Shown: positions 399 through 16,905, numbered from the stretch's first letter. The stretch is DNA of 32,000 nt from Cupriavidus necator (GCF_016127575.1 NZ_CP066020.1:60001-92000); one strand, 5' to 3'. The notes: generated from the sequence alone by a model not told the origin. Program-made: numbers and translations.

Positions 399-658
399 AA
401 AATATCGCGCTCCATCTTCAAGCGCGCCACTTCCGCCCGAAGCCGGGCCAGCTCCATCTGCTCGGGACTAACCGGCTTCATCCCCGCCCCAGTCAGCTTG
501 CCTTCCCGCTCCGCCTTGACCCAGTTATGCAGCGTCTGCGCTCTTATACCCAGGGTCGCGCTAACCACCGCCATGCTTTGCCCGCTCTTCACCAGCCGTA
601 CCGCTTCCAGCTTGAATTCCAGCGTGTACTGCGCCCGCTTTGTCTTGCTTGTCATCAC
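359..658 (-). CDS. IS3-family transposase OrfA (helix-turn-helix protein)
   Basis: 99-aa ORF MMTSKTKRAQYTLEFKLEAVRLV...LKKAAAYFAKESV, a typical IS3 OrfA with a leucine-zipper-like C-terminus ending just after the slippery site. The ATG at 655 is probably the true start. Confidence 0.85.
   Translation of the reverse strand: MMTSKTKRAQYTLEFKLEAVRLVKSGQSMAVVSATLGIRAQTLHNWVKAEREGKLTGAGMKPVSPEQMELARLRAEVARLKMERDILKKAAAYFAKESV
391..398 (-). promoter_or_regulatory. Candidate programmed -1 ribosomal frameshift site (A AAA AAG type)
   Basis: The minus strand reads TTTTAAAAAAAGCC at the orfA/orfB overlap, the position and sequence type used by IS3-family elements. Confidence 0.6.
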
Positions 659-716
659 ATCTCTCCTTGCTTCAGTTTAACCTCAGCAAGGGATTCGTTT
701 TACGGGGGCAAGCTCA

Positions 717-1440
717 ATGCGAGTTGCAACGCCTCGACCCGACAGCCGTTCTTAAGCACGTGAAAGAATAGTTCGACCTCCCAACGCGCGCGGTACCAGT
801 CAATAAGCTGCGCCGCTGCGTCAAGGTCGTCCACCTCGCGATTACTCAGCAGTCGCCATTCAATCGGCTTGACGCCTGCCGGCGGGTCGACCTCCCGGGC
901 GACGATGCAAGTGGCGCTCACCACGCCGCCCGCAGCATCAGGCAACGTGACACGTTGCGCCCACACCTGCTGCCGTACCGCGCGCGCCGGCTGAGCCTGA
1001 CGGGCTGCCAGCGTAAAGTGAATCCTGCCCACTGGCTTACCCGCAGTCACTTGGTCCCACAGCTTGCCGCCGCCAGGCAAGGTGCGATTGTGCTGCGAGC
1101 GCAGTAGCCAATCCGCCGGGTGGCCCAACTCCTTTGCCTTGACCATCAGCGCCATGATGTCCGACTCCCGGTCAGCCACATAGACGAGTCGCGTGGCAGG
1201 CAGTGCGGCCGCCTGTTCGGCGACCCGCTCATATCCTTCGGTCCAGCGGGTACTTTCCTTGATGCCGGGGCGCACGCCATCCGCACCCTTGGGCTCGCGC
1301 GCCCACATGTAGGCGTCAAGCACGCCCAGCGGTTCGCGCGCTGGCGTTACCGCGTAAGTCGGGTGCAGATATAGCCCGCGTTGCGCCTCATACGACAGCG
1401 GTCCCAAGCCTGCGATGGCCTGGCCGTTAAAGTCCAACTC
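717..1440 (-). pseudogene. IS4-family (Tn5/IS50-like) DDE transposase, central fragment (DFNGQ... to ...EALQL)
   Basis: The ORF at 700-1437 contains YVADRESD, IEWRLLSN and YRARWEVELFFHVLKNGCRVEALQL. Its 3' end is cut by the IS3 element and its 5' end by RIT4. It continues in frame from the N-terminal fragment at 15525-15812 (DTTEL|DFNGQ). Confidence 0.8.
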
Positions 1441-1467
1441 TAACGCAGAGTGTATTTTTATGCGGAG
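1441..1467. repeat. RIT4 terminal inverted repeat (ritC-side)
   Basis: TAACGCAGAGTGTATTTTTATGCGGAG; its reverse complement is present at 15472-15498 with one mismatch. Confidence 0.9.
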
Positions 1468-1504
1468 CCCCGTTCATGGAGGCCCCGTTGGCGAATGAAT
1501 TTGA

Positions 1505-1741
1505 CTACTTTTTTCTCTGCATAAGGGAACCCGGTCTTAGAGAGGCGATGAGTTCATCCGTAGCCTTGAAGCGTCCGGAACGCAGATTTGGCGGGACGAT
1601 TGCTTCGAGCGCTTCCAATTTTACCGATGGGTCCGCACGTGTGTAGATCTCGGTCGTCTGCATGTGTGCGTGGCCGAGCCAAAGCGAAACCTTTCTGAGA
1701 TCCTTGGTGGCTTGCAGGACGGACAACGCACAAGTGTGCCT
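1505..1741 (-). pseudogene. ritC: ritC-type tyrosine recombinase, C-terminal fragment (ritC4 remnant)
   Basis: (R)HTCALSVLQATKDLRKVSLWLGHAHMQTTEIYTRADPSVKLEALEAIVPPNLRSGRFKATDELIASL... is colinear with the RitC1 C-terminus (RHTMAMDLLQAGVDRSVIALWLGHESVETTQIYLEA...GRYRPADQLLGFL). It starts exactly at the R-H of the H-x-L-R-H box. Confidence 0.75.
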
Positions 1742-1769
1742 CCTATATCGTTCACGATATAGGAGGCAC
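1736..1769. repeat. 34-bp perfect hairpin palindrome at the RIT1 ritA-side junction
   Basis: GTGCCTCCTATATCG TTCA CGATATAGGAGGCAC: 15-bp perfect arms and a 4-nt loop, with each arm ending in the AGGCAC core. Confidence 0.9.
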
Positions 1770-1897
1770 TATGTGCCCTTCCCGACTATGTCTGGTAATC
1801 GAACGATAGCCCTATTTCGCGGGCAAACAGATGGCCGCAGATAGAGATAGTCTTGACTCCTTCCTTCAGCCCCAGAGCATTCGGGAAGGAGTCCATC

Positions 1898-3136
1898 ATG
1901 AGATACACCATCCATGACCGTGTCGTTCTCGCACGCGCACCAGACGGCCCGCTCGCGTCCCATATCGCCGCCTTTGCAAGCTCGATCGCTGCGCAGGGAT
2001 ACAGCACCCAGTCACTGAAGTATCACGTTCGGCTCGTTGCAGGTTTTAGCCGCTGGCTCGGTCGAAACGGAATTGACTTGCGTAATGTCTGTCCTGATCA
2101 AGCGGCGCGTTACTTACGTTAACGCGCGCGGCACGTGCGACCGGGTCCGGGAGATCGTGCTGCGCTCAAGCATCTCATTGCTTTTCTCGATCGTGAGAGG
2201 CTGATTCCGGCGCAGAGGACGCCCGCGCGTCGGCTGACCCCGGTTGAGTCCTGTACCCTGGCTTACGTTGAGTATCTTCGCGAGGTGCGCGCCCTGTCCA
2301 AGGCGACGATCATCAACTACACGCCGTTCATCAGGGAGTTTCTCGAAGATTGTTTTGGTGACCGGCGCGTCAGGCTTTCGCGTTTGCGTGCCGGCGATGT
2401 CGTGAACTTTGTGCAATTTCAGGCACAGCATCTGCATCTGAAGCGCGCGAAGCTCATGACGGCAGCGCTGCGATCCTTCCTACGTTACGCGTGCTATCGG
2501 GGCGACATGACGCTCGATCTGGCCGCCGCTGTTCCCGTGGTGGCCAACTGGTCGATGCAGTCCATCCCTCGCGGGATTCCCCCAGAGCAGATACAGGAAC
2601 TGCTGGTCAGTATCGATCGACGGACTGCCGTTGGTCGTCGTGATTACGCCATCATCCTGCTACTCGCGCGCCTGGGACTGCGTTCTGGGGAAGTGGCATT
2701 TCTCGACCTCGACGATATTGACTGGAACACAGGAGTTTTAAGCGTGCGCGGCAAGAGTGGCCTGCGTAACGGGCTGCCTTTGCCCGCCGATGTTGGCAAG
2801 GCGATTGCAGCGTACCTTCGCTACGGGCGACCGCAGAGCACGAGTCGCCGTGTATTTTTGCGTGCGAAGGCGCCTTTCACCGGCTTTCGTAGTGCGTGTG
2901 GCGTGGGCTCCATCGTTCGGCATTCGCTCCAGCGCGCCGGTATCAACGCCCCAACCACTGGGGCACACCAGTTTCGTCATGCACTGGCCAGCCAGATGCT
3001 CCGTCACGGCGCGTCACTCCGTGAGATTGGTGAGTTGTTGGGACACCATCATCCACAGACCACGTCGATCTACACGAAGGTCGACATCAAGGCATTGCGT
3101 ACGCTGGCCGTACCGTGGCCGGGAGGTGTGCGATGA
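1898..3136 (+). pseudogene. ritA: ritA1, RitA-type tyrosine recombinase interrupted by an in-frame TAA at 2120-2122
   Basis: The track ORFs 1853-2122 and 2135-3136 are one frame. RIT2 reads ...QYLRYRARHVRPG where RIT1 reads ...RYLR*RARHVRPG (TAT to TAA). A GGAAGGAG RBS precedes the ATG at 1898. Motifs LARLGLRSGE, HQFRH and LGHHHPQTTSIYTKV are present. Confidence 0.85.
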
Positions 3137-4077
3137 ACACGCTGCGGCAGGCCGTTCAGGAGTATCTGGACCTCAGGCGGAGCCTGGGCTTCAAGCTGAG
3201 GGAGGCCGGCAAGGCCTTGCCTGATTTCGTCGCGTTCATGGAGAGGCACCGTGCTTCCTTTATCACCCAGGCGTTGGCGCTCTTGTGGGCCCAGCAACCT
3301 TCCAACGTCCAACCCGCCCGCTGGGCGAGCCGACTCAGTATCGTGCGCGAGTTTGCGCGTCATCGTAGTGCGACCGACCCACGCACACAGATTCCTGCAC
3401 CGGGTCTGCTACCGTTTTCGCCGAAGCGGGCCCGACCATACCTATACTCGAGCGACGAGATTCGCAGACTACTCCATGCTGCGCTTCAGATGCCCTGCCG
3501 CTTCGCGCGTGACGAACTGCAACCATGGACCTATTACTGCCTGTTTGGCTTGCTGAGTGTATCGGGAATGCGCCTGGGCGAAGCGCGCAATCTTGAGCTT
3601 CAGGACATCGATCTGACAGCGGCAATATTGACGATCCGCGGCGCCAAACTTGGCAAGTCCCGGTTCGTTCCACTGCATGCGTCGACCTGCAACGTGCTCG
3701 CGGACTATATTGCACGACGCAAACGTCATTGGGCGGGGCGACCCGTGTCCTCCTACTTGTTCGTGTCTAACCAGGGCAACCGTCTGGATAGTGGCGAGAT
3801 TCATCGACACTTCTATGCATTGTCCCGGCAGATCGGTCTGCGTGGCGCAGCCGACAGTCACGGCCCACGTCTGCATGACATGAGGCACGTATTTGCGACG
3901 AATACGCTTTTACGCTGGTACCGTTCCGGACAGGACCCCGAGCGCCGCCTGCCCATCCTGTCAGCTTACCTCGGTCATGTCCACATCGAGGATACGCAGT
4001 GGTATCTGAACGCCTCGCCGGAGCTGATGCGCGAGGCGATGCGCCGGCTCGAACAGCGCTGGGAGATTCAACCATGA
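3133..4077 (+). CDS. ritB: RitB-type tyrosine recombinase (RIT1)
   Basis: MNTLRQAVQEYLDLRRSLGFKL...; catalytic motifs SGMRLGE, GAKLGKSRFVPLH, HDMRH and LGHVHIEDTQWY. The start overlaps the ritA1 stop (ATGA at 3133-3136). Confidence 0.85.
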   Translation: MNTLRQAVQEYLDLRRSLGFKLREAGKALPDFVAFMERHRASFITQALALLWAQQPSNVQPARWASRLSIVREFARHRSATDPRTQIPAPGLLPFSPKRARPYLYSSDEIRRLLHAALQMPCRFARDELQPWTYYCLFGLLSVSGMRLGEARNLELQDIDLTAAILTIRGAKLGKSRFVPLHASTCNVLADYIARRKRHWAGRPVSSYLFVSNQGNRLDSGEIHRHFYALSRQIGLRGAADSHGPRLHDMRHVFATNTLLRWYRSGQDPERRLPILSAYLGHVHIEDTQWYLNASPELMREAMRRLEQRWEIQP

Positions 4078-5072
4078 CTACTACCGCCAGTCTCGCTCCG
4101 TTGCTGGAGCGTTTCTTTACGCAACGCCTGATGCAGCAGCGCCAGGCGAGTCCCCACACGATTAGTTCCTATCGCGACACCTTTCGTCAATTCCTGAAGT
4201 TCGCGCTGCAACGCCTGCACCGGCAGCCTTCACGCATGAATTTCGAGGAAATCGATGCCCCTTTGATCGTTGCATTTCTCGATGACCTGGAGAAGCGTCA
4301 GGGCGTGAGCGTTCGGAGTCGAAATCTTCGCCTTACGGCAATTCATTCATTCTTTCGTTACGCGGCGCTCGAGACGCCGGCTCATTCCGCGCAGATCCAG
4401 CGAGTGCTCGCTATCCCCAGCAAGCGCTTTACCCGCACCCTGGTGCAATTCCTGACGCGCCAGGAAGTCGATGCGCTGCTCGCCGCACCGGACCAGCGTA
4501 CCTGGTCCGGCCGACGCGATCACGCCTTTTTGCTCTTCGCCGTACAAACTGGCCTGCGCCTGTCCGAGATGACTGGACTTAAGCGCGATGACCTCGTCCT
4601 CGGAATCGGTGCTCACGTGCGGGTGATCGGCAAGGGTCGGAAAGAGCGTTGTACGCCCATCGTCAGATCCACGCTCGCCGTGCTGAAAGCCTGGCTTCGG
4701 GAACCCAAGCGCGGTGAGGGGGACGTGCTTTTTCCGAACGCGAGGGGCGAACGTCTCACCGTTCATGGCGTGCAGTATCTCCTAAACAAGCATCGAGAGA
4801 CCGCGTCAAAAGTTTGTCCGTCGTTGAAGCACAAACAGGTCACCGTTCACCGTTTGAGGCATACGATGGCCATGGACCTTCTGCAGGCGGGCGTTGATCG
4901 TTCCGTGATTGCGCTGTGGCTCGGGCATGAATCGGTGGAAACCACGCAGATTTATCTCGAAGCGACACTTGCGATGAAGGAGCAGGCTCTCGCGAAGACA
5001 TCTCTGGCTCAAGGCAAGCCAGGACGCTACCGGCCTGCAGACCAACTTCTCGGCTTCCTGAATGGACTGTAA
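4074..5072 (+). CDS. ritC: RitC-type tyrosine recombinase (RIT1)
   Basis: MTTTASLAPLLERFFTQRLMQQRQASPHTISSYRDTF...; motifs TGLRLSE, GKGRKERCTPI, HRLRH and LGHESVETTQIYLEA. There is an ATGA overlap with the ritB1 stop at 4074-4077. Confidence 0.85.
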   Translation: MTTTASLAPLLERFFTQRLMQQRQASPHTISSYRDTFRQFLKFALQRLHRQPSRMNFEEIDAPLIVAFLDDLEKRQGVSVRSRNLRLTAIHSFFRYAALETPAHSAQIQRVLAIPSKRFTRTLVQFLTRQEVDALLAAPDQRTWSGRRDHAFLLFAVQTGLRLSEMTGLKRDDLVLGIGAHVRVIGKGRKERCTPIVRSTLAVLKAWLREPKRGEGDVLFPNARGERLTVHGVQYLLNKHRETASKVCPSLKHKQVTVHRLRHTMAMDLLQAGVDRSVIALWLGHESVETTQIYLEATLAMKEQALAKTSLAQGKPGRYRPADQLLGFLNGL

Positions 5073-5184
5073 GGCCACGGAACTATGTCGGGTAATGACT
5101 GGCGGGATGGCTCCGCGAGAAGTGCGCATCGGACGATCACGGACGCTCATCCTCATTACCCGATATAGTCAGGAAGGGCATATA

Positions 5185-5413
5185 GTGCCGCAGTGAATGT
5201 GGTGTCGGCCTCGGCATCCCAGGGCCACACGGTAGGCCTATCTTCTTCGCGGCAGCGCGAAATGCGATTTCGACATCATTGATAATTAATGGCTTTCTTG
5301 CCGTCGAAATGAACACGTGATCGTCGAATGGAGCGTAGGGCCGCCGCCGTTCCAAATACCGCTCCAGCCCGGCCCCAGCGCTGTCGTGCAAGGGAACGAG
5401 GCGGCTCTTGTTG
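5185..5413 (-). pseudogene. ritB: ritB-type recombinase, internal fragment (ritB4 middle part, NKSRLVPLH... to ...HSLRH)
   Basis: The minus-strand frame reads (S)NKSRLVPLHDSAGAGLERYLERRRPYAPFDDHVFISTARKPLIINDVEIAFRAAAKKIGLPCGPGMPRPTPHSLRH. It is colinear with RitB1/RitB3 (GKSRFVPLH...HDMRH). It is bounded by the RIT3 junction palindrome (5414) and the RIT1 end (5184). Confidence 0.7.
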
Positions 5414-5433
5414 CTACGCCGCTAGCGGCGTAG
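5414..5433. repeat. Perfect 20-bp palindrome at the RIT3 ritC-side junction
   Basis: CTACGCCGCTAGCGGCGTAG lies exactly between the ritB4 fragment and the RIT3 terminal IR. Confidence 0.9.
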
Positions 5434-5553
5434 TCGCAACTATGCCGCGTTCACGGCAATGCCGATCAAGCTGGGATCGGATCACGATGATGCTTATAGA
5501 GAGCCCAGCAGGAGGTCATTCCCAAAGTCGCCGGATCGGCATAGTTTTAATGG

Positions 5554-5769
5554 CTAAAGACCCTTGAGAAACGTCGCGAGCTTACTGTCAGGCCGGTATC
5601 GTACGGGCTTGCCATCATGTGGTCCGACATTAGCGAGAATCTTTTCCTTCAGCTCCAGACTGGCATCCAGGTAAATCTGGGTTGTCTGGAGCGATTCGTG
5701 GCCCATCCACAGGGCAATGTTGAATGGATCCACGCCAGCTTGCAATAATTCCATGGCTGCCGTGTGGCG
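5554..5769 (-). pseudogene. ritC: ritC3 C-terminal fragment
   Basis: (R)HTAAMELLQAGVDPFNIALWMGHESLQTTQIYLDASLELKEKILANVGPHDGKPVRYRPDSKLATFLKGL continues in frame from the ritC3 N-terminal fragment, which ends ...VTPHVLRH at 10535. Confidence 0.8.
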
Positions 5770-5797
5770 GCTATATCGTCCACGATATAGGAGGCAC
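5764..5797. repeat. Imperfect 34-bp hairpin palindrome at the RIT2 ritC-side junction (homologue of 1736-1769)
   Basis: GTGGCGGCTATATCG TCCA CGATATAGGAGGCAC: 12 of 15 arm positions pair, with a 4-nt loop. The outer arm ends in CGCCAC, where the perfect copy has AGGCAC. Confidence 0.85.
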
Positions 5798-5908
5798 TAT
5801 ATGCCCTTCCTGACTATATCGGGTAATGAGGGATTTGCCTCCGTGCTCGTCCGATGCGCACTTGTTGTGGAGCCATCCCCCGTCACTACCCGACATAGTT
5901 TCGTGGCC

Positions 5909-6907
5909 CTACAGTCCATTCAGGAAGCCGAGAAGTTCGTCTGCCGGCCGGTAGCGTCCTGGCTTGCCGTGAGCCAGAGATGTCTTCGCAAGAGCCTGCT
6001 CCTTCATCGCAAGTGTCGCTTCGAGATAGATCTGCGTGGTTTCCACCGATTCATGCCCGAGCCACAGTGCAATCACGGAACGATCAACGCCCGCCTGCAG
6101 AAGGTCCATGGCCATCGTATGCCTCAAACGGTGAACGGTGACCTGTTTCTGCTTCAACGATGGACAAATTTTTGACGCGGTCTCTCGATGCTTGTTTAGC
6201 AGATACTGCACGCCATGAACAGTGAGGCGTTCGCCCCTCGCGCTTGGAAACAGCACGTCGTCCTCACCGCGCTGGGGTTCCCGCAGCCAAGCTTTCAGTA
6301 CGGCGAGCGTGGATCTGACGATGGGCGTACAACGCTCTTTCCTACCCTTGCCAATCACCCGCACGTGAGCACCGGTTCCGAGAACAAGGTCATCGCGTTT
6401 GAGTCCGGTCATCTCGGACAGGCGAAGGCCAGTTTGCACGGCGACCAGCAAAAAGGCGTGATCGCGTCGGCCGGCCCAGGTACGCTGGTCCGGTGCGGCA
6501 AGCAGGGCATCGACTTCCTGGCGAGTCAGGAATTGCACCAGGGTGCGGGTAAAGCGCTTGCTGGGGATAGCAAGCACCCGCTGGATCTGAGCGGAATGAG
6601 CCGGCGTCTCGAGCGCCGCGTAACGAAAGAAGGAATGAATTGCCGTGAGGCGAAGATTTCGACTGCGAACGCTCACGCCCTGACGCTGCTCCAGGTCATC
6701 GAGAAATGCAACGATCAAAGGGGCATCGATTTCCTCGAAATTCATGCGTGAAGGCTGCCGGTGCAGGCGTTGCTGCGCGAACTTCAGGAACTGACGAAAG
6801 GTGTCGCGATAGGAACTGATCGTGTGGGGACTCGCCTGGCGCTGCTGCATCAGGCGTTGCGTAAAAAAACGCTCCAGCAACGGAGCGAGACTGGCGGTAG
6901 TAGTCAT
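5909..6907 (-). CDS. ritC: RitC-type tyrosine recombinase (RIT2)
   Basis: It has 12 differences in 332 aa from RitC1 by my count. The start ATG at 6907 overlaps the ritB2 stop (ATGA). The track ORF extends to 6982, but the upstream part overlaps ritB2. Confidence 0.85.
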   Translation of the reverse strand: MTTTASLAPLLERFFTQRLMQQRQASPHTISSYRDTFRQFLKFAQQRLHRQPSRMNFEEIDAPLIVAFLDDLEQRQGVSVRSRNLRLTAIHSFFRYAALETPAHSAQIQRVLAIPSKRFTRTLVQFLTRQEVDALLAAPDQRTWAGRRDHAFLLVAVQTGLRLSEMTGLKRDDLVLGTGAHVRVIGKGRKERCTPIVRSTLAVLKAWLREPQRGEDDVLFPSARGERLTVHGVQYLLNKHRETASKICPSLKQKQVTVHRLRHTMAMDLLQAGVDRSVIALWLGHESVETTQIYLEATLAMKEQALAKTSLAHGKPGRYRPADELLGFLNGL

Positions 6908-7848
6908 GGTTGAATCTCCCAGCGCTGTTCCAGCCGGCGCATCGCCTCGCGCATCAGCTCCGGCGAGGCGTTCAGATACCACTGCGTATCCGCGATGTGG
7001 ACGTGACCGAGGTAAGCTGACAGGATGGGCAGGCGGCGCTCGGGGTCCTGTCCGGAACGGTACCAGCGTAAAAGCGTATTCGTCGCAAATACGTGCCTCA
7101 TGTCATGCAGACGCGGGCCGTGACTGTCGGCTGCGCCACGCAGACCGATCTGCCGGGACAATGCATAGAAGTGTCGATGAATCTCTCCACTATCCAGACG
7201 ATTGCCCTGGTTAGACACGAACAAGTAGGAGGACACGGGTCGCCCCGCCCAATGACGTTTGCGTCGTGCAATATAGTCCGCGAGCACTTTGCAGGTCGAC
7301 GCATGCATTGGAACGAACCGGGACTTGCCAAGTTTGGCGCCGCGAATCGTCAATATTGCCGCCGTCAGATCGATGTCCTGAAGCTCAAGATTGCGCGCTT
7401 CGCCCAGACGCATGCCCGAAACGCTCAGCAAGCCAAACAGGCAGTAATAGGTCCATGGTTGCAGTTCGTCGCGCGCGTAGCGGCAGGGTATCTGAAGCGC
7501 AGCATGGAGTAGTCTGCGAATCTCATCGCTCGAGTATAGGTATGGTCGGGCCCGCTTCGGCGAAAACGGCAGCAGACCCGGTGCAGGAATCTGTGTGCGT
7601 GGGTCGGTCGCACTACGATGACGTGCAAACTCGCGCACGATACTGAGTCGTCGCGCCCAGTGCGCGGGTTGGACGTTGGAAGGTTGCTGGGCCCACATAA
7701 GAGCCAATGCCTGGGTGATGAAGGAAGCGCGGTGCCTCTCCATAAACGCGACGAAATCAGGCAATGCCTTGCCGGCATCTTTAAGCTTGAAGCCCAAGCT
7801 CCGCCTGAGGTCCAGATACTCCTGAACGGCCTGCCGCAGCGTGTTCAT
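6904..7848 (-). CDS. ritB: RitB-type tyrosine recombinase (RIT2)
   Basis: MNTLRQAVQEYLDLRRSLGFKLKDAGK...; same motifs as RitB1. There is an ATGA overlap with the ritA2 stop at 7845-7848. Confidence 0.85.
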   Translation of the reverse strand: MNTLRQAVQEYLDLRRSLGFKLKDAGKALPDFVAFMERHRASFITQALALMWAQQPSNVQPAHWARRLSIVREFARHRSATDPRTQIPAPGLLPFSPKRARPYLYSSDEIRRLLHAALQIPCRYARDELQPWTYYCLFGLLSVSGMRLGEARNLELQDIDLTAAILTIRGAKLGKSRFVPMHASTCKVLADYIARRKRHWAGRPVSSYLFVSNQGNRLDSGEIHRHFYALSRQIGLRGAADSHGPRLHDMRHVFATNTLLRWYRSGQDPERRLPILSAYLGHVHIADTQWYLNASPELMREAMRRLEQRWEIQP

Positions 7849-9083
7849 CGCACACCTCCCGGCCACGGTACGGCCAGGGTACGCAATGCCTTGATGTCGA
7901 CCTTCGTGTAGATCTTCGTGGTCTGCGGATGATGATGTCCCAACAACTCACCAATCTCACTGAGTGACGCGCCGTGACTGAGCATCTGGCAGGCCAGTCC
8001 ATGGCGAAACTGGTGCGCCCCCGTGGTTGGGGCGTCGATGCCGGCGCGCTGGAGCGAGTGCCGAACGATGGAGCCCACGCCACTCGCACCACGAAAGCCG
8101 ATAACAGGCGCCTTTGCACGCAAAAACACACGGCGACTGGTGCTCTGCGGTCGCCCGTCTCGAAGGTATGCTGCAATCGCCTTTCCAACATCGGCGGGCA
8201 AAGGCAGCCCGTTACGCTGGCCACTCTTGCCGCGCACGCTTAAAACTCCTGTGTTCCAGTCAATATCGTCGAGCTCGAGAAATGCCACTTCCCCAGAACG
8301 CAGTCCCAGGCGCGCGAGCAGCAGGATGATGGCGTAATCACGACGACCAACGGCAGTCCGTCGATTGATACTGACCAGCAGTTGCTGTATCTGCTCTGGT
8401 GGAATCCCGCGAGGGATTGACTGCATCGACCAGTTGGCCACGACGGGAACAGCGGCGGCCAGATCGAGCGTCATGTCGCCCCGATAGCACGCGTAACGTA
8501 GGAAGGATCGCAGCGCTGTAGTCATGAGCTTCGCGCGCTTCAGATGCAGACGCAGTGCCTGACATTGCACAAAGTTCACGACATCGCCGGCACGCAAACG
8601 CGAAAGCCTGATGCGCCCGTCACCAAAGCAATCTTCGAGAAACTCCCTTATGAACGGCACGTAATTGACGATCGTTGCTTTGGACAGGGCGCGCGCCTCA
8701 TGCAGATACTCAACGTAAGCCTGTGTACAGGACTCAATAGGGGTCAGCCGACGCTCAGGCATTCTCTGCGCCGAAATCAGCCTCTCACGATCGAGAAAAT
8801 CAATGAGATGCCTGAGCGCAGCACGGTCTCCCGGACCCGGTCGCACGTGCCGCGCACGATAACGTAAGTATTGCGCACTGTGATCAGGACAGACGTTATG
8901 CAAGTCAATTCCGTTTCGGCCAAGCCAGCGGCTAAAACCTGCAACGAGCCTAACGTGGTACTTCAGTGACTGCGTACTGTATCCCTGCACAGCGATCGAG
9001 TTCGCAAAGGCGACGATATGGGACGCGAGCGGGCCTTCTGGTGCGTGTGCGAGAACGACACGGTCATGGATGGTGTATCTCAT
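7845..9083 (-). CDS. ritA: RitA-type tyrosine recombinase (RIT2), intact
   Basis: MRYTIHDRVVLAHAPEGPLASHIVAFANSIAVQGYS... begins at the ATG at 9083 preceded by GGAAGGAG, and is the same length (1239 nt) as ritA1. The 875-aa track ORF (to 10472) is read-through antisense to the ISL3 transposase, not a real extension. Confidence 0.85.
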   Translation of the reverse strand: MRYTIHDRVVLAHAPEGPLASHIVAFANSIAVQGYSTQSLKYHVRLVAGFSRWLGRNGIDLHNVCPDHSAQYLRYRARHVRPGPGDRAALRHLIDFLDRERLISAQRMPERRLTPIESCTQAYVEYLHEARALSKATIVNYVPFIREFLEDCFGDGRIRLSRLRAGDVVNFVQCQALRLHLKRAKLMTTALRSFLRYACYRGDMTLDLAAAVPVVANWSMQSIPRGIPPEQIQQLLVSINRRTAVGRRDYAIILLLARLGLRSGEVAFLELDDIDWNTGVLSVRGKSGQRNGLPLPADVGKAIAAYLRDGRPQSTSRRVFLRAKAPVIGFRGASGVGSIVRHSLQRAGIDAPTTGAHQFRHGLACQMLSHGASLSEIGELLGHHHPQTTKIYTKVDIKALRTLAVPWPGGVR

Positions 9084-9173
9084 GATGGACTCCTTCCCGG
9101 ATGCTCTGGGGCTGAAGGAAGGAGTCAAGACTATCTCTATCTCCGTGCATCCGTTTGCCCATGAAATAGAGAG

Positions 9174-10486
9174 GCCTCTTTTGAATTTCAAGTGGGTGGT
9201 ATCGTGGCGGGTTTCAGGTAAAGAGCAACAAGAGCGATGCATAGCAAACTGTTTGAAGCAGCCCTTGGCATAAGCGATCCGTGGTTCGTCCGGGAAGTCG
9301 ACTTCAACGCGCAAACCAAGACGTTGACGATCCAGATTGACTTTGTCGCCGGCAGCCGCTTTTCCCACCCGGAGGTCGCCGGTGGGCACCCGGTTCACGA
9401 CACGGTGACCAAACGCTATCGGCACCTGAACTTCTTCGAGCACGACTGCTATCTGGAAGTCCGCACGCCACGCGTGAAGCTTCCCGACGGCCGCGTGGTG
9501 TTGGTCGAGCCGGACTGGGCTGGCAAGCTCTCTGGCTTCACGTTGCTGTTTGAAGCCATGGTGGTGGCGCTTGCGCAGCAGATGCCGTTTTCTGCTGTAG
9601 CCAGAACGGTGGGTGAGTCGTGGCATCGCGTGTACGCTATCTGCGAGCGCTATGTCGACCTCGCGGTGGCCGAACTCGATCTGGCCGGCGTGACCGCTGC
9701 CGCCGTTGACGAAACGTCCTACAGGCGCGGTCACAACTACCTGACGCTTGTCGCTGATGCCGACGCGCGTAAGGTCGTGTTTGTGACCGAAGGCAAGGAT
9801 GCTGCCACGGTTGGCAAGTTCGCTGCACATCTGCGCGAGAACAACGCTGCGCCTGAGCAGATCGGGGTGGTCAGTATCGACATGTCGCCGGCGTTCATCA
9901 AGGGCGTCAGCGAGCATTTGCCCAACGCGCGCATCACCTTCGACAAGTTCCATGTCGTGGCTCACGCTTCTGCAGCCGTGGACAAGACCCGGCGTATCGA
10001 ACAGAAGACCGATCCAAGCCTCAAAGGCCTGCGCTGGACGCTGCTCAAGGATCGCGACGGGTTGCCAGCCGCGCAGCGTGCCGATCTCGACGCGTTGATC
10101 GCCAACGTCACGACCAAACGCACTGCCCGTGCCTGGCTGTATCGCGAGCAGTTGCGCGAAATCCTTGAGCGCAAGCAGATCAACGTTGTTTCCGCAATGC
10201 TCGAGCAGTGGTGCACGAACGTCATGCGATCCAAGGTCGAGCCAATGAAGGAGGTCGCGCGCATGATCCGCAAGCATTTCGACGGTATCGTTGCATGGAC
10301 CCAGACGCGCCAGACCAATGGCTTCCTGGAGGCGCTCAACGGCCTGTTCCAAGCCGCCAAGCGCAAGGCCCGCGGTTATGTGAGCTTCAAAACCATGCGC
10401 ACCGTGATCTTCCTGATCGCCGGAAAGCTCGACTTCTCCGCGATCAACCCGCATGCCGCATAACCCACTCATTTTTCAAAAGAGCC
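9174..10486 (+). mobile_element. ISL3-family insertion sequence (1313 bp)
   Basis: The 24-bp imperfect IRs are GCCTCTTTTGAATTTCAAGTGGGT (9174-9197) and the reverse complement of 10463-10486, GGCTCTTTTGAAAAATGAGTGGGT (18/24). An 8-bp direct duplication ATAGAGAG lies at 9166-9173 and 10487-10494. There is a single 408-aa transposase gene. Confidence 0.85.
9237..10463 (+). CDS. ISL3-family transposase
   Basis: MHSKLFEAALGISDPWFVREVDFNAQTKTLTIQIDF...VDETSYRRGHNYLTLVADA...VSIDMSPAFIKGV...FDKFHVV...TNGFLEALNGLFQAAKRKARGY is the characteristic ISL3 layout and motif set. Confidence 0.9.
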   Translation: MHSKLFEAALGISDPWFVREVDFNAQTKTLTIQIDFVAGSRFSHPEVAGGHPVHDTVTKRYRHLNFFEHDCYLEVRTPRVKLPDGRVVLVEPDWAGKLSGFTLLFEAMVVALAQQMPFSAVARTVGESWHRVYAICERYVDLAVAELDLAGVTAAAVDETSYRRGHNYLTLVADADARKVVFVTEGKDAATVGKFAAHLRENNAAPEQIGVVSIDMSPAFIKGVSEHLPNARITFDKFHVVAHASAAVDKTRRIEQKTDPSLKGLRWTLLKDRDGLPAAQRADLDALIANVTTKRTARAWLYREQLREILERKQINVVSAMLEQWCTNVMRSKVEPMKEVARMIRKHFDGIVAWTQTRQTNGFLEALNGLFQAAKRKARGYVSFKTMRTVIFLIAGKLDFSAINPHAA

Positions 10487-10534
10487 ATAGAGAGCTATCT
10501 TTCGATTACAAGACATAGTCGGGAAGGGCATATA

Positions 10535-11323
10535 GTGCCTCAGCACGTGCGGCGTCACTCGTTTCTTTCGCAGCGAAGGACATCCCATGGCAGCCTGGGT
10601 AGCGTACTTTTTCAGGAGACGTTGTACCGCGTCCGGACTGAGATGTCCACCTCGAACACTCGGAAATAGCGCGTCGCTGTTGGGTGTGCGAGGCTCTTTC
10701 ATCCAAGCTTTTAGAATAGCGGCGGTCTCCTTGCTAAAAGGGGTAACGCGCTGTTTTCGACCTTTACCCATAACATCAATGTGCGCGCCTGCGCCGAGGG
10801 TCACGTCCTCGCGTGTGAGGCCGGTCATTTCCGACACACGAAGTCCCGTCTCCACACCCAGTCGGAGTAACGCATGATCGCGACGACCACACCAGGTGCG
10901 CTTATCGGGTGCAGCGAGCAGCGCCTTGACTTCCGGCCGTGTCAGAAAGTGAATGAGCCTGCGATCGTAGCGTTTGTTGGGCATCGACAGCACGCGCTGG
11001 ATCTGCGCGGAATACGCGGGCGTCTCGAAGGCCGCGTAACGGAAGAACGAGCGAATCGCTGTCAGTCGCAGATTTCGGGTGCGGACACTGATAGCCCGGG
11101 TCTTCTCCAGATCATTCAGAAATGCTGTCACGAGCGGCGCATTGATGTCCTCAAATGCCAGATGATCCGGCGGTTTGTGCAGACGCTTGTAGGCAAAACG
11201 AAGCAGCAGCCTGAACGTGTCCCGATAGGAACTGATGGTGTGCGGACTGGCCTGCCGTTGTTGCATGAGACGTTCCGTAAAGAACCGCTGCACTAATGAT
11301 GGGAAACCGACGGTAGATTTCAT
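10535..11323 (-). pseudogene. ritC: ritC3 N-terminal fragment, ending at H-V-L-R-H
   Basis: MKSTVGFPSLVQRFFTERLMQQRQASPHTISSYRDTF...GKGRKQRVTPF...RVTPHVLRH then runs into the RIT2 terminal IR (translated YMPFPTMS...). The start overlaps the ritB3 stop (ATGA at 11320-11323). Confidence 0.8.
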
Positions 11324-12252
11324 GACATATCCTTCCAGCGACGCTCCAGGCGCTTCATCGCCTGCTTCATGAGCTCTGGGTGCTGCTCGACATACCAGTA
11401 TGTATCTCTCGCCCACTGGTGCCCGAGGAACGTCGACAGCACCGGTAACCAACGCACCGGGTCTTTACCCGACCGGTCTAATCTCGCCAGCGTCGTGACC
11501 GCAAATAAATGGCGATAGTCGATCAGGCGGGGAGCGCGCTTTGCTGACGAATCGCGAAGACCGATTTCCCGTGTGAGCGCCGTAAATGTATGAGAAACCA
11601 TGTCTCCACTGAGTGGCTTGCCTTGCGAAGTGATGAACACATGGGTTTCCGGGCGCCCCGCAAGACATCGCGCGCGACGTCGAAGATAGTCTGCAAGTGC
11701 ATCTCGAGTGGAGGAATGAATAGGAACCCACCTCGACTTTCCAAATTTGCTTCCCCGCACCGTCAGTACGCATTCTTTCAAGTCAACGTCTTCGAGTTCC
11801 AGATTGACCGCTTCGCCGGGGCGCAACCCCGTGACGCTTAGCAGTCCTATCAGCGTAAAATATGTCCACCGCCGCAGTCCCGATTCCGGAGGAAGAGCCA
11901 GCGCGGCAGCCAATATCTTCTGGGTTTCCTCATCGGTGTAAAGGTAGGGAGCACGCCGATGATACCGGTGCGGCAACAATTCGGCCCGTGGAATCTCTGT
12001 ATGCGGATCGAAGGCACTCAGATAGCGTGCAAAGCCACGCACCACACCTAATCGCTGAGCCCAGATCACCGGTTGAACCGACGGGGACTTTTGTGCCCAG
12101 GTCAACGCCAGTGACGCGCTGATGTGAGAGGCCCGATGTCGTTCCATAAAGCAGACGAAGTCTTCCAGACGTTGGCCTGCTTCATGGAGTTTGAATCCCA
12201 GACGACGACGCATCGTCAGGTATTCTTCCATTGATTTGCGTAACGTACTCAT
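11320..12252 (-). CDS. ritB: RitB-type tyrosine recombinase (RIT3)
   Basis: MSTLRKSMEEYLTMRRRLGFKLHEAGQ...; motifs TGLRPGE, GSKFGKSRWVPIH, IDYRH and LGHQWARDTYWY. There is an ATGA overlap with the ritA3 stop. Confidence 0.85.
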   Translation of the reverse strand: MSTLRKSMEEYLTMRRRLGFKLHEAGQRLEDFVCFMERHRASHISASLALTWAQKSPSVQPVIWAQRLGVVRGFARYLSAFDPHTEIPRAELLPHRYHRRAPYLYTDEETQKILAAALALPPESGLRRWTYFTLIGLLSVTGLRPGEAVNLELEDVDLKECVLTVRGSKFGKSRWVPIHSSTRDALADYLRRRARCLAGRPETHVFITSQGKPLSGDMVSHTFTALTREIGLRDSSAKRAPRLIDYRHLFAVTTLARLDRSGKDPVRWLPVLSTFLGHQWARDTYWYVEQHPELMKQAMKRLERRWKDMS

Positions 12253-13481
12253 GATCGGGGGCTCGGCCATGGCGGCGCCAAGGTCCGCAGTGAATCCAGA
12301 TCGACCTTCGCGTATATTCTCGTCGAGTCGGGACTTTTGTGGCGCAAGACTTCGCTAATCTCGGCCAGCGAGGATCCTTGACGCAGCATCTGTGTCGCTA
12401 ACGCATGCCGGAATTGATGGGTTCCTTTCCTCAACGAATCGATACCAGCCCGCTCTAGAGCGTATCTGACAACATTGCATACCGCTTTTTCCGTCTTGAA
12501 CCCACGAATCGGCGCGTTTATACGCAGGAAGACACTTCGACTCTCAGAATCCGCGCGACCGTTTTTCAGGTAGTCGGCGATCGCTTCACCCACCGGCGCG
12601 AGTAATGGCAACGGCGACTCCTGACCGCCTTTTCCGTGAATGTTCAACGTGCCCGTTTCCCAATCGATGTCATCCAACGTCAAGGAAACCACCTCGCCGC
12701 TCCGCAACCCCAGCCGGGCAAGGAGGAGCAGAATCGCATAATCTCGGCGGCCGACGGGGCGACGGCGGTCGCAACTGGCCAACGCTCGCCTAGCATACTC
12801 AGGGGATATCGCTTTGGGGATTGATGCCATTGACCAGTGGGCGACCCTGGGGATCGCTGCAGCGAGGTCAAGCTTGATCAAGCCACGATAACGCGCATAC
12901 TGCAAAAACGAGCGCAAGACCTTTGCGATCGATTGCGCTCGCCCTGGACTTTGAGTGGCCTCATGCTGAACAAAGTCGATGATCTCGCGGGCACTGAGAT
13001 CCGAGAGCCGCGTCGCCCCATCACCGAATTGCTTTGTTAAAAACAAATGCGCACACCACCGATATTTCCTGATCGTCGTGGCTGCCAAGCCTCGTTCCTG
13101 GTGCAGATACAAAGAGTATCCGTTTACCAATTTTTCAACTGGTGTCTGCGCACCGGACGCTTCCTTTGCTACGATTCCATTTTCTTGAAGCAATTGTACA
13201 AAGCGTCTTACCGCATATCTCGCGCCGTTCCGATGACAGCGGTGGTGTTCTCGGTAGCGCAGATAACGTTGCGCAGTTTCATGAGTCACTTCCTCGATCG
13301 ACATTTTCTTGCACTTGAGCCACACGCTGAAATCGGCAACGAGAAGCAAGTGTCTGCGAATAGACTCCTGCGCGTAACCTTGATCATTCAGCAGACCTTC
13401 AAATGCACCGAGGTGTTCAGCAAGGGGGCCCTCGGGTGTATCGAGTGAGTGCGACCGCGTTTTTTGGTACAACTTCTCCAT
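12249..13481 (-). CDS. ritA: RitA-type tyrosine recombinase (RIT3)
   Basis: MEKLYQKTRSHSLDTPEGPLAEHLGAFEGLLNDQGYA...; motifs LARLGLRSGE, HQFRH and LRHKSPDSTRIYAKV. The start is chosen by colinearity with RitA1/RitA4; the track ORF begins at 13517. Confidence 0.8.
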   Translation of the reverse strand: MEKLYQKTRSHSLDTPEGPLAEHLGAFEGLLNDQGYAQESIRRHLLLVADFSVWLKCKKMSIEEVTHETAQRYLRYREHHRCHRNGARYAVRRFVQLLQENGIVAKEASGAQTPVEKLVNGYSLYLHQERGLAATTIRKYRWCAHLFLTKQFGDGATRLSDLSAREIIDFVQHEATQSPGRAQSIAKVLRSFLQYARYRGLIKLDLAAAIPRVAHWSMASIPKAISPEYARRALASCDRRRPVGRRDYAILLLLARLGLRSGEVVSLTLDDIDWETGTLNIHGKGGQESPLPLLAPVGEAIADYLKNGRADSESRSVFLRINAPIRGFKTEKAVCNVVRYALERAGIDSLRKGTHQFRHALATQMLRQGSSLAEISEVLRHKSPDSTRIYAKVDLDSLRTLAPPWPSPRS

Positions 13482-13609
13482 GACCTTCGCCTCTTGTAAA
13501 AGCGGGTCTAACATCAATCAGACTATGCCGATCATCCTTCGTTCATTGCCTTGAATTTGCGGCTCGCCACGTCCAAATCGAACATAGTTAACTACGCGGC
13601 ATAGTTGCG

Positions 13610-14098
13610 AAACTTAGAGGATCGAATCACCAGTCCCTCTGGGGTGATGTCTTCGTAGCGTAGGCCGATGGCTTCCGATACCCTTAGCCCGGTGCAAGCA
13701 AGTAATGCGAACAGTGTGCTGTAGGTATATCGCCGCAACGTTTCACGCCCCGACTGGGAGGCTGCCTGAACGAGGTGGCGGACCTCGTCCGTGGAAAAGA
13801 TATAAGGGATAGGTCGAATCCGTTGGCTGCTGCCGAAGACGGGCGGAGGCACTTCATGGCGAGAATCTTCGGCCCGTGCGTACCGAGCAAATCGAATCAC
13901 CTCACCGAGTCGGCGAGCTCGTCGAGGTGCCAAGCGTGCCAATCCAGCCCATTCGATGGCGGTATCGGCGCACACGTGGGATTTACCCCTTGCGTCTGAG
14001 TAGGCGGCGAAGCTGCGCAACAGATTGCCCTGCGACTTAAGTTCAAATCCACAGGCACGGCGCACTTCCAGATATGACTGCACGGTTTGCTTTAACAT
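13610..14098 (-). pseudogene. ritB: ritB4 N-terminal fragment, ending at ...IRSSKF
   Basis: MLKQTVQSYLEVRRACGFELKSQGN...TGLRVSEAIGLRYEDITPEGLVIRSSKF then runs into the RIT3 terminal IR (translated RNYAA*). The start overlaps the ritA4 stop. Confidence 0.8.
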
Positions 14099-15339
14099 GG
14101 CAGTTCCTCCGGCCATGGTTGGGCAATCTGCCGCAACGCGGCGATGTCCACTTTTGCATAAATTTGCGTAGTCGCGACAGATTGATGCCGTAGAACGGCC
14201 GCAATATCCTGCAGGGACGCACCTTGCCCCAACATCGACGTTGCAACCGAATGGCGCAGCACATGGGCGGCGCCTCGGCTCGAGCAGACAACACCAGCTC
14301 GGCGCATTGCCTTCTTAACGATGATGGAGATGGCAGCATGATTTGCAAAGGCTTGAAACGGGGCACACGCGCGGACGAATACCGTATCGGTATCGGTTCG
14401 AGGCCGTCCCTGTCGAAGATAATCCACAATGGCCTGCCCGACTTCCTGTGTCAGAGGCAGGAGTGTCTGCCGCCCGTTTTTGCCTGAGACCGAGATCGAG
14501 GCATCTTTCCAATCGATATCCCCGATGCGCAGATGCCAAATATCGCCGGCGCGAAGCCCCAAACGCGCCAGCAGCAGCAAAATTGCACGGTCCCTCTGAC
14601 CGACTGGCGACGCTGTGTCACATGAAGCGATGACGCGTTCGACTTCGTCGAGTTGCAAATATCGCGGCAGCGTTGACAGGCTCCAATGTGCCAAGACGGG
14701 TATCGCTGCCTCCAGACCGGCAGCGCACTTGCCTTCGGCTATCAGAAACCGAACGAGCATGCGTAATGCCGTCGTGCAGTGCTTTGCCGCCGCCCATCCC
14801 TTCTTCATGCTTTGCTCAAGGATGAACTGGCGCAAGTCCATTGCATTCAGTTTGCCGAGGTCATCCCCTCGTCTGAATAGATCTCGAAGCGCAATACCGT
14901 GGTTGTACAAAGTGGCATCACTGGTTCCACGCTGTTGGCGCATCCATTGGCAGAATGCGAAGAACTGAACTGATTCCAGGTCCGCTGCAAGCGCAGTAAA
15001 ACCGATTGCCCGGGTGCTGATTCCCCCTTGGTACGTCAGGAACATCCGCGCACCCCGTAACGATACGATGCGCCGCTGATGCCCAAAGCCCTGGCATTGG
15101 CATCGACTCAAATGTTCAGCGAAACGTTCAAGAGTCAATTCGTTAAAACTGGGAAGCGGTATGCCTTCCCGATTCGCCCAACACAGGAAGTGCGATGCCG
15201 CAGCAATACGGGTGCAAATAGAACTCTTCGCGTAACCGAGCTGCTCCAGGTATTGAGAGAAGCCTTCAAGCAGCGGGCCGCCTGGGCGAGAGAGAAGCAG
15301 TTGAACGTGCGAAGGGGATTTGAAGTACTGACTAAGCAT
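14092..15339 (-). CDS. ritA: RitA-type tyrosine recombinase (RIT4)
   Basis: MLSQYFKSPSHVQLLLSRPGGPLLEGFSQYLEQLGYA...; motifs LARLGLRAGD, HVLRH and LRHQSVATTQIYAKV. The ATG at 15339 is preceded by AGGAGGA. Confidence 0.8.
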   Translation of the reverse strand: MLSQYFKSPSHVQLLLSRPGGPLLEGFSQYLEQLGYAKSSICTRIAAASHFLCWANREGIPLPSFNELTLERFAEHLSRCQCQGFGHQRRIVSLRGARMFLTYQGGISTRAIGFTALAADLESVQFFAFCQWMRQQRGTSDATLYNHGIALRDLFRRGDDLGKLNAMDLRQFILEQSMKKGWAAAKHCTTALRMLVRFLIAEGKCAAGLEAAIPVLAHWSLSTLPRYLQLDEVERVIASCDTASPVGQRDRAILLLLARLGLRAGDIWHLRIGDIDWKDASISVSGKNGRQTLLPLTQEVGQAIVDYLRQGRPRTDTDTVFVRACAPFQAFANHAAISIIVKKAMRRAGVVCSSRGAAHVLRHSVATSMLGQGASLQDIAAVLRHQSVATTQIYAKVDIAALRQIAQPWPEELPC

Positions 15340-15471
15340 GACGTCCTCCTTGAGCAGAAGTCTCCAGTCGAGTGGCCAGAAAGACGTCAATATTATGCGG
15401 AGCAATGCCGAGCAAACGCGATACTCGATCTGCTTTGAGAGAAGTCCAGTTACATCCGCTTCGGTGAACTA

Positions 15472-15498
15472 CTCCGCATTAAAATACACTCTGCGTTA
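15472..15498. repeat. RIT4 terminal inverted repeat (ritA-side)
   Basis: CTCCGCATTAAAATACACTCTGCGTTA. A further inverted partial copy, TATGCGGAG, lies at 15394-15402 inside the same end. Confidence 0.9.
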
Positions 15499-15530
15499 GA
15501 GCTGTAACGCGGTGCACGGCGTTACAGCTC
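15499..15530. repeat. 32-bp near-perfect palindrome at the RIT4 / IS4-transposase junction
   Basis: GAGCTG TAACGC GGTGCACG GCGTTA CAGCTC (30/32 self-complementary). The arms combine the 6-bp core and the first 6 nt of the terminal IR. Confidence 0.9.
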
Positions 15531-15812
15531 CGTGGTGTCTTGGATGCATAGCACCACTTCGCAAGCTCGCATTCGCTCGGCTGAGCTCTGCCAGTGGGGA
15601 GCCAGAATATCGCGCCAGTCCAGTTCATCCTGAGCCAGGAAGCGGTATGCCGCAGCCGTTTCCGCCCAGCCGCCGCATGCGCTGGGGATGCTTGCCGTCG
15701 GCTTCTCTGCGAGCCGCTCCGCTAGCAGCACCGCCCGCTTGTTCAGGCGCTGGTCGCCCAAGTCAATGTCCTTGAATTCTGCCGCTGCCCAACTCGTTGC
15801 CTCTCGCTTCAT
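15525..15812 (-). pseudogene. IS4-family (Tn5/IS50-like) transposase, N-terminal fragment ending at ...CIQDTTEL
   Basis: MKREATSWAAAEFKDIDLGDQRLNKRAVLLAERLAEKPTASIPSACGGWAETAAAYRFL... is a typical Tn5-type transposase N-terminus. The frame is broken at 15525 by the RIT4 junction. An ATG at 15812 is the likely start (the track ORF begins at a TTG at 15830). The outer end of this IS (somewhere in 15830-15900) could not be defined. Confidence 0.8.
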
Positions 15813-16732: not shown

Positions 16733-16905
16733 TACGCGCAAGAGAGAAAAAATGGACATCAGCCAGAGCCCTGCAAATACTAGAATCAGCAGACTACCGG
16801 GTGTCCATAGAGTCAGCAGAAAAAAATGGACACAACGACCGTCAGAATGTCCATTTCCAGTCGCAAGTTTCGCAGCTGATTTCGAGTGAAGATGCACGCC
16901 GCAAT

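Follow-up and report, generated by a model that had tools for sequence, protein, structure and literature searches.

The window analysed in this study, 32,000 nucleotides from Cupriavidus necator (NZ_CP066020.1:60001-92000), belongs to the megaplasmid pHG1 of C. necator H16, and its positions 1-17000 were 100% identical to positions 30178-47177 of NC_005241.1. The same stretch was identical in a second, independent assembly from 2019 (NZ_CP039289.1), so the nest of mobile elements described here is no assembly artefact. The nest contains RIT elements, which were named in 2009 and are spread across many bacterial phyla. Each RIT consists of three overlapping tyrosine recombinase genes, ritA-ritB-ritC, in about 3.4 kb with terminal inverted repeats and an overlapping palindrome (PMC3414803). 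That pHG1 holds a RIT tangle is already known: the plasmid has been named as especially RIT-rich with its RITs in "complex combinations" (PMC3414803), the region analysed here is part of its "junkyard region" (PMC13434340), and a second RIT cluster, PHG129-141, has been described as a "maze of pHG1 recombinase genes" (PMC2864759).

The order of the elements was drawn from the listing of open reading frames (ORFs), a repeat search, and the RefSeq annotation of the window (Table 1). Four RITs of three sequence families lie in the 14 kb between two parts of an IS4-family (Tn5-like) transposase gene, as a sequence-only reading of this DNA had proposed, with RIT1 and RIT2 94% identical over 3291 nt in inverted orientation. 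The rit genes are adjacent and co-oriented and encode RitA of about 410 amino acids with an extra N-terminal domain, RitB of about 315, and RitC of about 330; their ORFs overlap at 3133/3136 and 4074/4077 in RIT1, 6904/6907 and 7845/7848 in RIT2, and 22554/22561 and 23534/23537 in RIT5. The unit of about 3.4-3.5 kb carried inverted repeats and the overlapping palindrome, and related elements measured 3382-3431 bp between the repeat ends. Pfam searches found tyrosine recombinase domains in the Rit proteins (Phage_integrase and SAM-like domains in RitA2, RitA3, RitA4, and the restored RitC3), while RitA5, RitB5, and RitC5 matched Xer-type models below the cutoffs of those models.

The main chain of the nest could be followed level by level through homologues. 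When the two parts of the IS4-family transposase gene were joined in silico, they ran in frame through ...IQDTTEL/DFNGQ... (a slash marks a junction), and the restored protein contained Tnp_DNA_bind (E 5.1e-26) and DDE_Tnp_1 (E 4.8e-06) domains of Pfam. A 94.6% identical IS4 copy on a C. taiwanensis plasmid was uninterrupted at exactly this point (gttaaagtc-CAGCTC-cgtcgtg), confirming that RIT4 splits the gene at DTTEL/D. Inside RIT4, the ritB4 fragment ending at 13610 joined the fragment at 5412 in frame through ...IRSSKF/NKSRLVPLH...HSLRH, and the restored RitB4 was colinear with the intact RitB of the Paraburkholderia plasmid pBN3, which carries the nearest RIT4 relative (RitA 61% identical), at 62% identity with no indels across the RIT3 site (...IRCSKFRRSRIVPLH...). 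The two halves of ritC3 joined in frame to a full RitC of 332 amino acids, and a 90% identical RIT3 copy on plasmid pENH92 of C. necator NH9 had ritC intact across the RIT2 site. The innermost element, ISAe1, lies in the ritA-side end of RIT2, is bounded by 23-bp inverted repeats with 8 bp of target duplicated around them (ATAGAGAG at 9166-9173 and 10487-10494), and encodes a transposase with the DDE_Tnp_ISL3 domain of the ISL3 family (Pfam E 1.3e-65). It was absent from RIT1 and from a 99.8% identical RIT2 copy at 131-135 kb of pHG1; since this sibling copy lacks it, it probably entered the chain last. An ORF of 875 amino acids on the minus strand (7845-10472) was discarded as a gene, being a read-through of ritA2 across the antisense strand of ISAe1.

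On these comparisons the main chain is read as serial insertion, with the IS4 element followed by RIT4, RIT3, RIT2, and ISAe1. Empty sites of the kind that the sequence-only reading had proposed to look for were found at three levels (IS4, RIT3, and RIT2), and the fourth level was covered by the colinear intact RitB. That reading was right about the order of the chain, about the 8-bp duplication of the ISL3 element, and about the in-frame splits of the IS4 gene and of ritC3; its end for the ritB4 fragment, 5413, was one base off and gives an out-of-frame join, whereas 5412 is in frame. Its claim that the nest documents RIT mobility now has good comparative evidence in the empty sites, while the cause of the nesting had escaped it, and its description of an unusually clean record did not hold. 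The flanks of RIT1 come from different RIT4 genes, and ISRme13 also cuts the IS4 element, at 713/717, the rest of which lies upstream of the window in pHG1. An IS5-family transposase fragment, a further piece of the junkyard, was observed just beyond the IS4 element (16179-16778).

RIT1 did not behave as a simple insertion. One flank is ritB4 (...HSLRH), and the other, the C-terminal 77 codons of a RitC-type protein reading (H)TCALSVLQATKDL..., matches the ends of RitC proteins, not of RitB. Excision of RIT1 in silico left an in-frame ritB4::ritC4 fusion that was colinear with no intact gene, a result which the sequence-only reading had itself named as speaking against simple nested insertion. 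RIT4 does occupy the gap between the IS4 halves, as proposed, but it is not a complete element plus inserts: about 1 kb is gone, comprising the C-terminus of ritB4 and the N-terminus of ritC4, so that its gene content is now ritA4 and the fusion. A RIT1-type element thus sits after the Arg-His codons of ritC4, with its other end now joined to the Arg-His codons of ritB4. The same junction of ritC4 with RIT1 was found at 94.7% identity in a contig of Burkholderiaceae bacterium 16 (L033), where RIT1 at its other end adjoins the pseudo-core ACGTCA at the start of ritA4; the entry into ritC4 is probably old, since it is common to another strain. On plasmid 2 of EbN1 a RIT1-type element likewise stands between ritB (...HDLRH) and ritC (TTAMHLLQ...). 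These junctions suggest that a RIT1-type element can recombine through its palindrome-free end with a further core-like site in cis, so that the intervening DNA is deleted; a crossover between two RIT1 copies is a possible alternative. As a separate observation, an IS66-family element in pBN3 cuts a RIT4-like ritC 3 nt past the Arg-His codons (...HLLRHT/GTAAGCG..., at about 6925-6950 of L004), which may be chance or may mean that another kind of element also uses this spot.

For the events as a whole we infer the order RIT4 into IS4, a RIT1-type element into ritC4, RIT3 into ritB4, RIT2 into ritC3, and ISAe1 last, an order in which no place can be assigned to the ritB4-ritC4 deletion and the ISRme13 insertion. 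RIT1, with a stop codon in ritA, and RIT3 and RIT4 are predicted to be dead. The genes of RIT2 are intact, but ISAe1 sits between its ritA and the element end.

The five RITs of the window (RIT1-RIT5) shared one end layout without target duplication. In the sense of the target gene it reads target-left, c1, terminal repeat, rit genes, terminal repeat, c2, 20-bp palindrome, c3, target-right, where c1, c2, and c3 are 6-bp cores at the palindrome-free junction, inside the element, and at the palindrome-side junction, respectively. To extend the comparison, species-representative genomes were scanned with a RitB profile, giving 80 loci, from which 49 RIT1/2-type elements were parsed, 38 of them with one palindrome; about one third of the 80 loci were missed by the inverted-repeat detector (short contigs and other end types) and are left out rather than counted as negatives. 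The palindrome was exactly 20 nt long in all 38, and 23 RIT5-type ends parsed from a metagenome scan with RitB5 had the same geometry. Because the empty sites lack the palindrome, it moves with the element. A terminal repeat, a core, and half of the palindrome together show the classical format of a tyrosine recombinase site, namely two inverted arms around a 6-bp crossover region, and joining of the two RIT ends would give a single long palindrome containing two of these sites back to back. Relative to the target gene the palindrome was 3' in every case, whether it adjoined ritA (23 elements) or ritC (15). In one genome, two 100% identical RITs (L056 and L057) lay in opposite orientations in two copies of one target gene, with the palindrome 3' in both. 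These orientations fit two equivalent sites flanking the palindrome, each of them usable, with an asymmetric core setting the polarity.

The targets followed a rule for each family. At the palindrome-free flank of RIT1/2-type elements, 36/38 read H-x-x-R-H into the element, from about 30 distinct target sequences, and the palindrome flank read [R/S/H]-H-[S/T/C/Y]... outward in 37/38. The flanks, once rejoined, gave an uninterrupted ORF of at least 289 amino acids in 23/38, and the restored targets were RitC, RitB, Xer/integron-like recombinases, and one true integron integrase, that of an Alteromonadaceae metagenome-assembled genome (L046), split at ...CHTLRH/SFATHLL... and scoring 444 bits against TIGR02249 (cutoff 265). 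A third RIT1/2-type copy on pHG1 likewise lies at ...PHTLRH of a ritC gene. The exceptions were L024, in an ISL3 transposase gene, and the deletion junction of L033. The palindrome-side flanks of RIT3-type elements read x-[K/R]-S-R of ritB in 7/7, with the full xKSRxVPxH in 5 and opposite flanks ending in ...KF. Among the 23 RIT5-type ends, 20 read x-Y followed by recombinase C-terminal tails recognised by eye, e.g. RYLKVATSTICATSSPFD. The targets of the families are the Arg-His codons of HxxRH with the core consensus N-C-G-N-C-A for the RIT1/2 type, KF/xKSR of ritB for the RIT3 type, and the catalytic tyrosine codon with the core NNNNTA for the RIT5 type. Because each RIT carries three tyrosine recombinase genes, RITs are one another's best targets, and site-specific homing to recombinase-motif codons accounts for both the nesting and the in-frame rejoining.

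The cores varied within limits set by the target codons. In RIT1-type elements c1, c2, and c3 share NCGNCA, and all their variation falls on positions 1 and 4, where the target codons xxN-CGN-CAY have their wobble bases. All three cores were equal in 8 of the 38 elements, c1 equalled c2 in 7, c2 equalled c3 in 5, c1 equalled c3 in 8, and all differed in 10. The idea that c2 always equals c1, as in RIT2, RIT3, the pENH92 copy, and RIT5, was ruled out by the occurrence of every equality pattern. Two RIT3 copies that are 90% identical had the unlike cores TCGCAA and CAAAAA. The variation is read as strand exchange across non-identical cores, which would be carried from site to site.

RIT5, the fifth element, lies beyond the range of the sequence-only reading and looks intact. 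It splits an ORF of 487 amino acids at ...TTERY/LGY...; a core of 7 bp considered for it was replaced by one of 6 bp so that its geometry matches the other families. In the restored ORF the K-box, HDLRA, and TTERY line up with RitB motifs by eye (alignment E 0.08). The surroundings hold a three-gene operon on the minus strand (17265-26040) with overlapping stop and start codons, made up of this ORF, restored across RIT5, and two ORFs of 626 amino acids. None of the three had a match in Pfam or NCBIfam, and the operon may be an undescribed multi-gene mobile element. Further on, look-alikes of a nickel/cobalt permease (28424-29458, minus strand; HoxN-like motif HAVDTDHLAAIDN) and of an [NiFe]-hydrogenase small subunit (29785-30840, plus strand) were recognised by eye only, and the stretch may be the start of a pHG1 hydrogenase region.

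Table 1. Positions of the mobile elements, their ends, and their genes in the window
Feature	Position	Strand	Remarks
ISRme13 (IS3 family), 3' part	1-713		96% matches to ISRme13 copies
IS4-family transposase, middle part (DFNGQ...RVEALQL)	717-1434	-	joins 15525-15812 in C. taiwanensis
IS4-family transposase, N-terminal part (...IQDTTEL)	15525-15812	-	upstream end of the IS4 element reaches 15939
RIT4 with all inserts	1435-15524
RIT4 palindrome-free end, core	1435-1440		CAACTC
RIT4 palindrome-free end, repeat	1441-1467		27-bp terminal inverted repeat
RIT4 palindrome end, repeat	15472-15498		inverted repeat
RIT4 palindrome end, internal core	15499-15504		GAGCTG
RIT4 palindrome	15505-15524		20 bp, TAACGCGGTGCACGGCGTTA
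RIT4 core c3	15525-15530		CAGCTC, part of the IS4 target
ritA4	14092-15339	-
ritB4, N-terminal fragment (...IRSSKF)	13610-14098	-
ritB4, middle fragment (NKSRLVPLH...HSLRH)	5185-5412	-
ritC4, C-terminal fragment (TCALSVLQATKDL...)	1505-1735	-	sole remnant of ritC4
RIT1 inside RIT4	~1737-5191	+
RIT1 core c3	1737-1742		GAGGCA, minus strand
RIT1 palindrome	1743-1762		20 bp
RIT1 internal core c2	1763-1768
RIT1 body	1769-5185	+	31-bp inverted repeats 1769-1799 and 5155-5185
ritA1	1898-3136	+	pseudogene, TAA stop at 2120-2122
ritB1	3133-4077	+
ritC1	4074-5072	+
RIT1 junction core c1	5186-5191		GCGGCA on minus strand, Arg-His codons of ritB4 HSLRH
RIT3 inside RIT4	5413-13609	-
RIT3 core c3	5408-5413
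RIT3 palindrome	5414-5433		20 bp, CTACGCCGCTAGCGGCGTAG
RIT3 internal core c2	5434-5439		TCGCAA
RIT3 palindrome end, terminal repeat	from 5440		end region listed to 5456
RIT3 palindrome-free end	13588-13610		terminal repeat to 13604
RIT3 core c1	13605-13610		TCGCAA on minus strand
ritC3, C-terminal fragment (TAAMELLQ...)	5554-5763	-
ritC3, N-terminal part	10535-11323	-
ritB3	11320-12231	-
ritA3	12249-13481	-
RIT2 inside RIT3	5764-10534	-
RIT2 core c3	5765-5770		CCGCCA, minus strand
RIT2 palindrome	5771-5790		20 bp
RIT2 internal core c2	5791-5796
RIT2 body	5797-10535	-	inverted repeats 5797-5827 and 10505-10535; carries ISAe1
ritC2	5909-6907	-
ritB2	6904-7848	-
ritA2	7845-9083	-
RIT2 junction core c1	10536-10541		GAGGCA on minus strand, Arg-His codons of ritC3 HVLRH
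ISAe1 (ISL3 family) inside RIT2	9174-10486	+
ISAe1 transposase	9237-10463	+	RefSeq name ISAe1
RIT5	21128-24690	+	intact fifth RIT
RIT5 palindrome	21134-21153		20 bp, a core on either side
RIT5 terminal repeats	from 21161; to 24684
RIT5 end core	24685-24690
ritA5	to 22561	+
ritB5	22554-23537	+
ritC5	23534-24544	+

The geometry of the ends suggests how the elements may move. A RIT would leave its site as a circle, whose junction, a single long palindrome made up of both terminal repeats, the 20-bp palindrome, and two cores, would hold two equivalent crossover sites, each made of a binding arm, a 6-bp core, and a second binding arm. Strand exchange by the Rit recombinases would take place between the 6-bp core of one or the other site and a 6-bp core resembling it in the target; the asymmetry of the core would then fix the side of the palindrome and the choice of site the orientation of the rit genes. 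Where the cores differ, mismatched junctions would be left, and the three cores of an element would be a mosaic of its present and earlier targets. The RIT1 deletion could have arisen when the palindrome-free end recombined with a second core in cis, or through crossing-over of two copies of RIT1. For the intermediate, the simplest reading is a circle with a twin-site junction. Taken together, the 14-kb block is very probably a stack of site-specific insertions into family-specific targets, produced by the proposed exchange of cores.

Several observations weigh against this account. Among the 49 parsed RIT1-type elements, 6 had no palindrome and 1 had two, and extra rearrangements are needed for these. 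The simplest twin-site reading expects c3 to equal the core of the target, but the intact homologue of ritC3 has the core GAGACA, nearer to c1 of RIT2 (GAGGCA) than to its c3 (CCGCCA); with pENH92 compared for ritC3 and pBN3 for ritB4, the junction core that appears to derive from the target leans to c1, not decisively. In a mobilome study, RIT DNA was protected against exonuclease, but circle junctions were not found (PMC5737581). The 487-amino-acid target of RIT5 aligned with the RitB profile in hhalign at E 0.08, which is not significant. The targets of RIT4, a DDE transposase gene, and of L024, an ISL3 transposase gene, are not recombinases, and RITs have been described from radC and from IS66/Tn6049 transposase genes (PMC2864759, PMC3414803), so that the recombinase-motif rule holds family by family, not universally. 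Finally, the sample was seeded by RitB similarity, many of its contigs are metagenome-assembled, and some insertions are inherited copies.

Some of the unusual elements were described further. In most of the palindrome-less ones (L022, L027, L036, L045, L072, and L074) both flanks read H-x-x-R-H into the element and resemble two N-terminal gene halves facing each other, and one flank each of L036 and L074 has stop codons; L062 has palindromes on both sides. Both kinds look like the reciprocal inversion products of two inserted copies. In L047 (1401-8258) two 100% identical RITs form a direct tandem with an odd junction (...GGAAGGGT/CTATCTACCC...), which could be a genuine head-to-tail dimer or an error of the assembly. 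The second pHG1 cluster, at 128.3-137.7 kb (L090 10345-19678), has its RIT2 copy between inverted 3.1-kb copies of another RIT, which are 99.9% identical and both cut at ritC ...KKKSITPHTLRH; the palindrome is on neither side of this RIT2 copy, and an IS66 element adjoins.

Other explanations of the nest were weighed against the same data. If RITs inserted nearly at random and piled up because the pHG1 junkyard tolerates insertions, the in-frame joins would be coincidental. The region is dense in insertion sequences and pseudogenes (PMC13434340), but the use of the same codons in unrelated genomes (36/38, 7/7, and 20/23), the base-exact junctions, and the invariant side of the palindrome leave almost no credence for chance. 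Scrambling by homologous recombination or inversion among RIT paralogues, instead of serial insertion, would draw on the 3.3-kb inverted repeats formed by RIT1 and RIT2, the origin of the RIT1 flanks from two genes, the inverted duplication around the RIT2 copy in the second pHG1 cluster, and the elements with zero or two palindromes. Scrambling is able to account for the RIT1 deletion and for the second cluster. It fails for the main chain, where the IS4, RIT3, and ISAe1 junctions have uninterrupted counterparts and each excision restores a colinear gene; as the origin of the nest it is quite improbable.

The remaining alternatives concern the palindrome and the intermediate. As a hairpin containing GC and adjoining genes, the palindrome might be only a transcription terminator or regulatory hairpin of the rit operon, but it lay upstream of ritA in 23/38 and downstream of ritC in 15, and its distance was a constant 6 bp both to the terminal repeat and to the target. 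This role was rejected as exceedingly improbable, since the side of the palindrome follows the target gene rather than the rit genes. Telomere resolvases are relatives of tyrosine recombinases, and the same nest and target rule could also arise through a linear intermediate with closed hairpin ends, or a snap-back single strand, with the palindrome as the remnant of the hairpin turn. Terminal repeat, core, and palindrome do form a long perfect palindrome, and hairpins were proposed for the exonuclease-protected RIT DNA in which circle junctions were not detectable (PMC5737581). A return-strand stem, however, predicts that c2 equals c3, which was true in 13/38 only; a hairpin intermediate seems unlikely beside the twin-site circle but is a serious rival to it.

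A wider view of RITs as hyperparasites is put forward tentatively, as a plausible reading and not a settled one: their cores would match motif codons, each insertion would inactivate a rival recombinase, the cores would record earlier targets, and movement would proceed from twin sites in either orientation. Any tyrosine recombinase gene in the cell would serve as a landing pad, whether it belongs to another RIT, an integron, or an Xer-like element, since a core would need only the invariant nucleotides of one catalytic-motif codon pair (Arg-His in HxxRH, the ritB Lys-box, or the catalytic Tyr). With each hop the three cores would be rewritten. If the homing rule is true, RITs are mobile elements specialised in disabling the recombinases of other mobile elements. 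The rule would also explain why RIT genes are often annotated as truncated integrases, why RIT "mazes" occur on plasmids such as pHG1 and EbN1 plasmid 2, and why integron and Xer-like integrase genes are found split by 3.4-kb inserts.

In earlier work, insertions in radC and transposase genes were taken as hints of mobility (PMC2864759, PMC3414803), Van Houdt et al. described the inverted repeat with the overlapping palindrome and left it uninterpreted (PMC3414803), and Nielsen et al. described terminal palindromes of 47-51 bp (PMC5737581). The target specificity and mode of movement of RITs were listed as untested in 2023, with no laboratory transposition reported (PMC10214605). No dissection of the pHG1 nest, crossover core, 6+20+6 geometry, or target rule was found in the full-text literature, which did not cover Ricker et al. 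2013 (Plasmid 70:226), where RIT target preferences could be reported. The pHG1 locus together with about 70 related elements gives exact boundaries, a 6-bp crossover core, a predicted junction, and defined targets, and the main value of the nest lies in the homing rule that it exposes rather than in the nest as a curiosity.

Among known systems, Tn554, with TnpA, TnpB, and TnpC, is not known to have terminal inverted repeats, unlike the RITs of the window, in which inverted repeats were present together with three overlapping Xer-like genes that leave no space between or beside them for a TnpC-like ORF. Tn554, the SEs, and the GInts are like RITs in being site-specific, using several recombinases, and making no target duplication, and in Tn554 and the SEs 6 bp of the previous site are carried along and come to lie at one junction, which resembles the variable RIT cores (PMC10214605). 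They are unlike RITs in each requiring an additional protein other than a tyrosine recombinase (TnpC, Tfp/Srap, or GinD) and in belonging to other families with other targets, and no twin-site palindrome is described for them in the literature covered (PMC10214605). XerCD/dif and Cre/loxP are single resolution or excision sites, whereas a RIT has two sites back to back and its partner is a coding sequence with little arm similarity. Like the RIT ends, those sites have two inverted binding arms around a crossover region of 6-8 bp. Tn916-type conjugative transposons also exchange strands across non-identical overlaps of 6-7 bp and end with unlike junctions that hold sequence of the previous site, but they are large conjugative elements with one integrase and Xis, prefer loose AT-rich targets, and are not known to insert at conserved codons. 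Tn5053 and Tn402, the "res-site hunters", resemble RITs in homing to a functional site of other mobile elements and hence in being nested; they are DDE transposons directed at resolution sites, whereas RITs target and inactivate recombinase genes at the codons of catalytic motifs.

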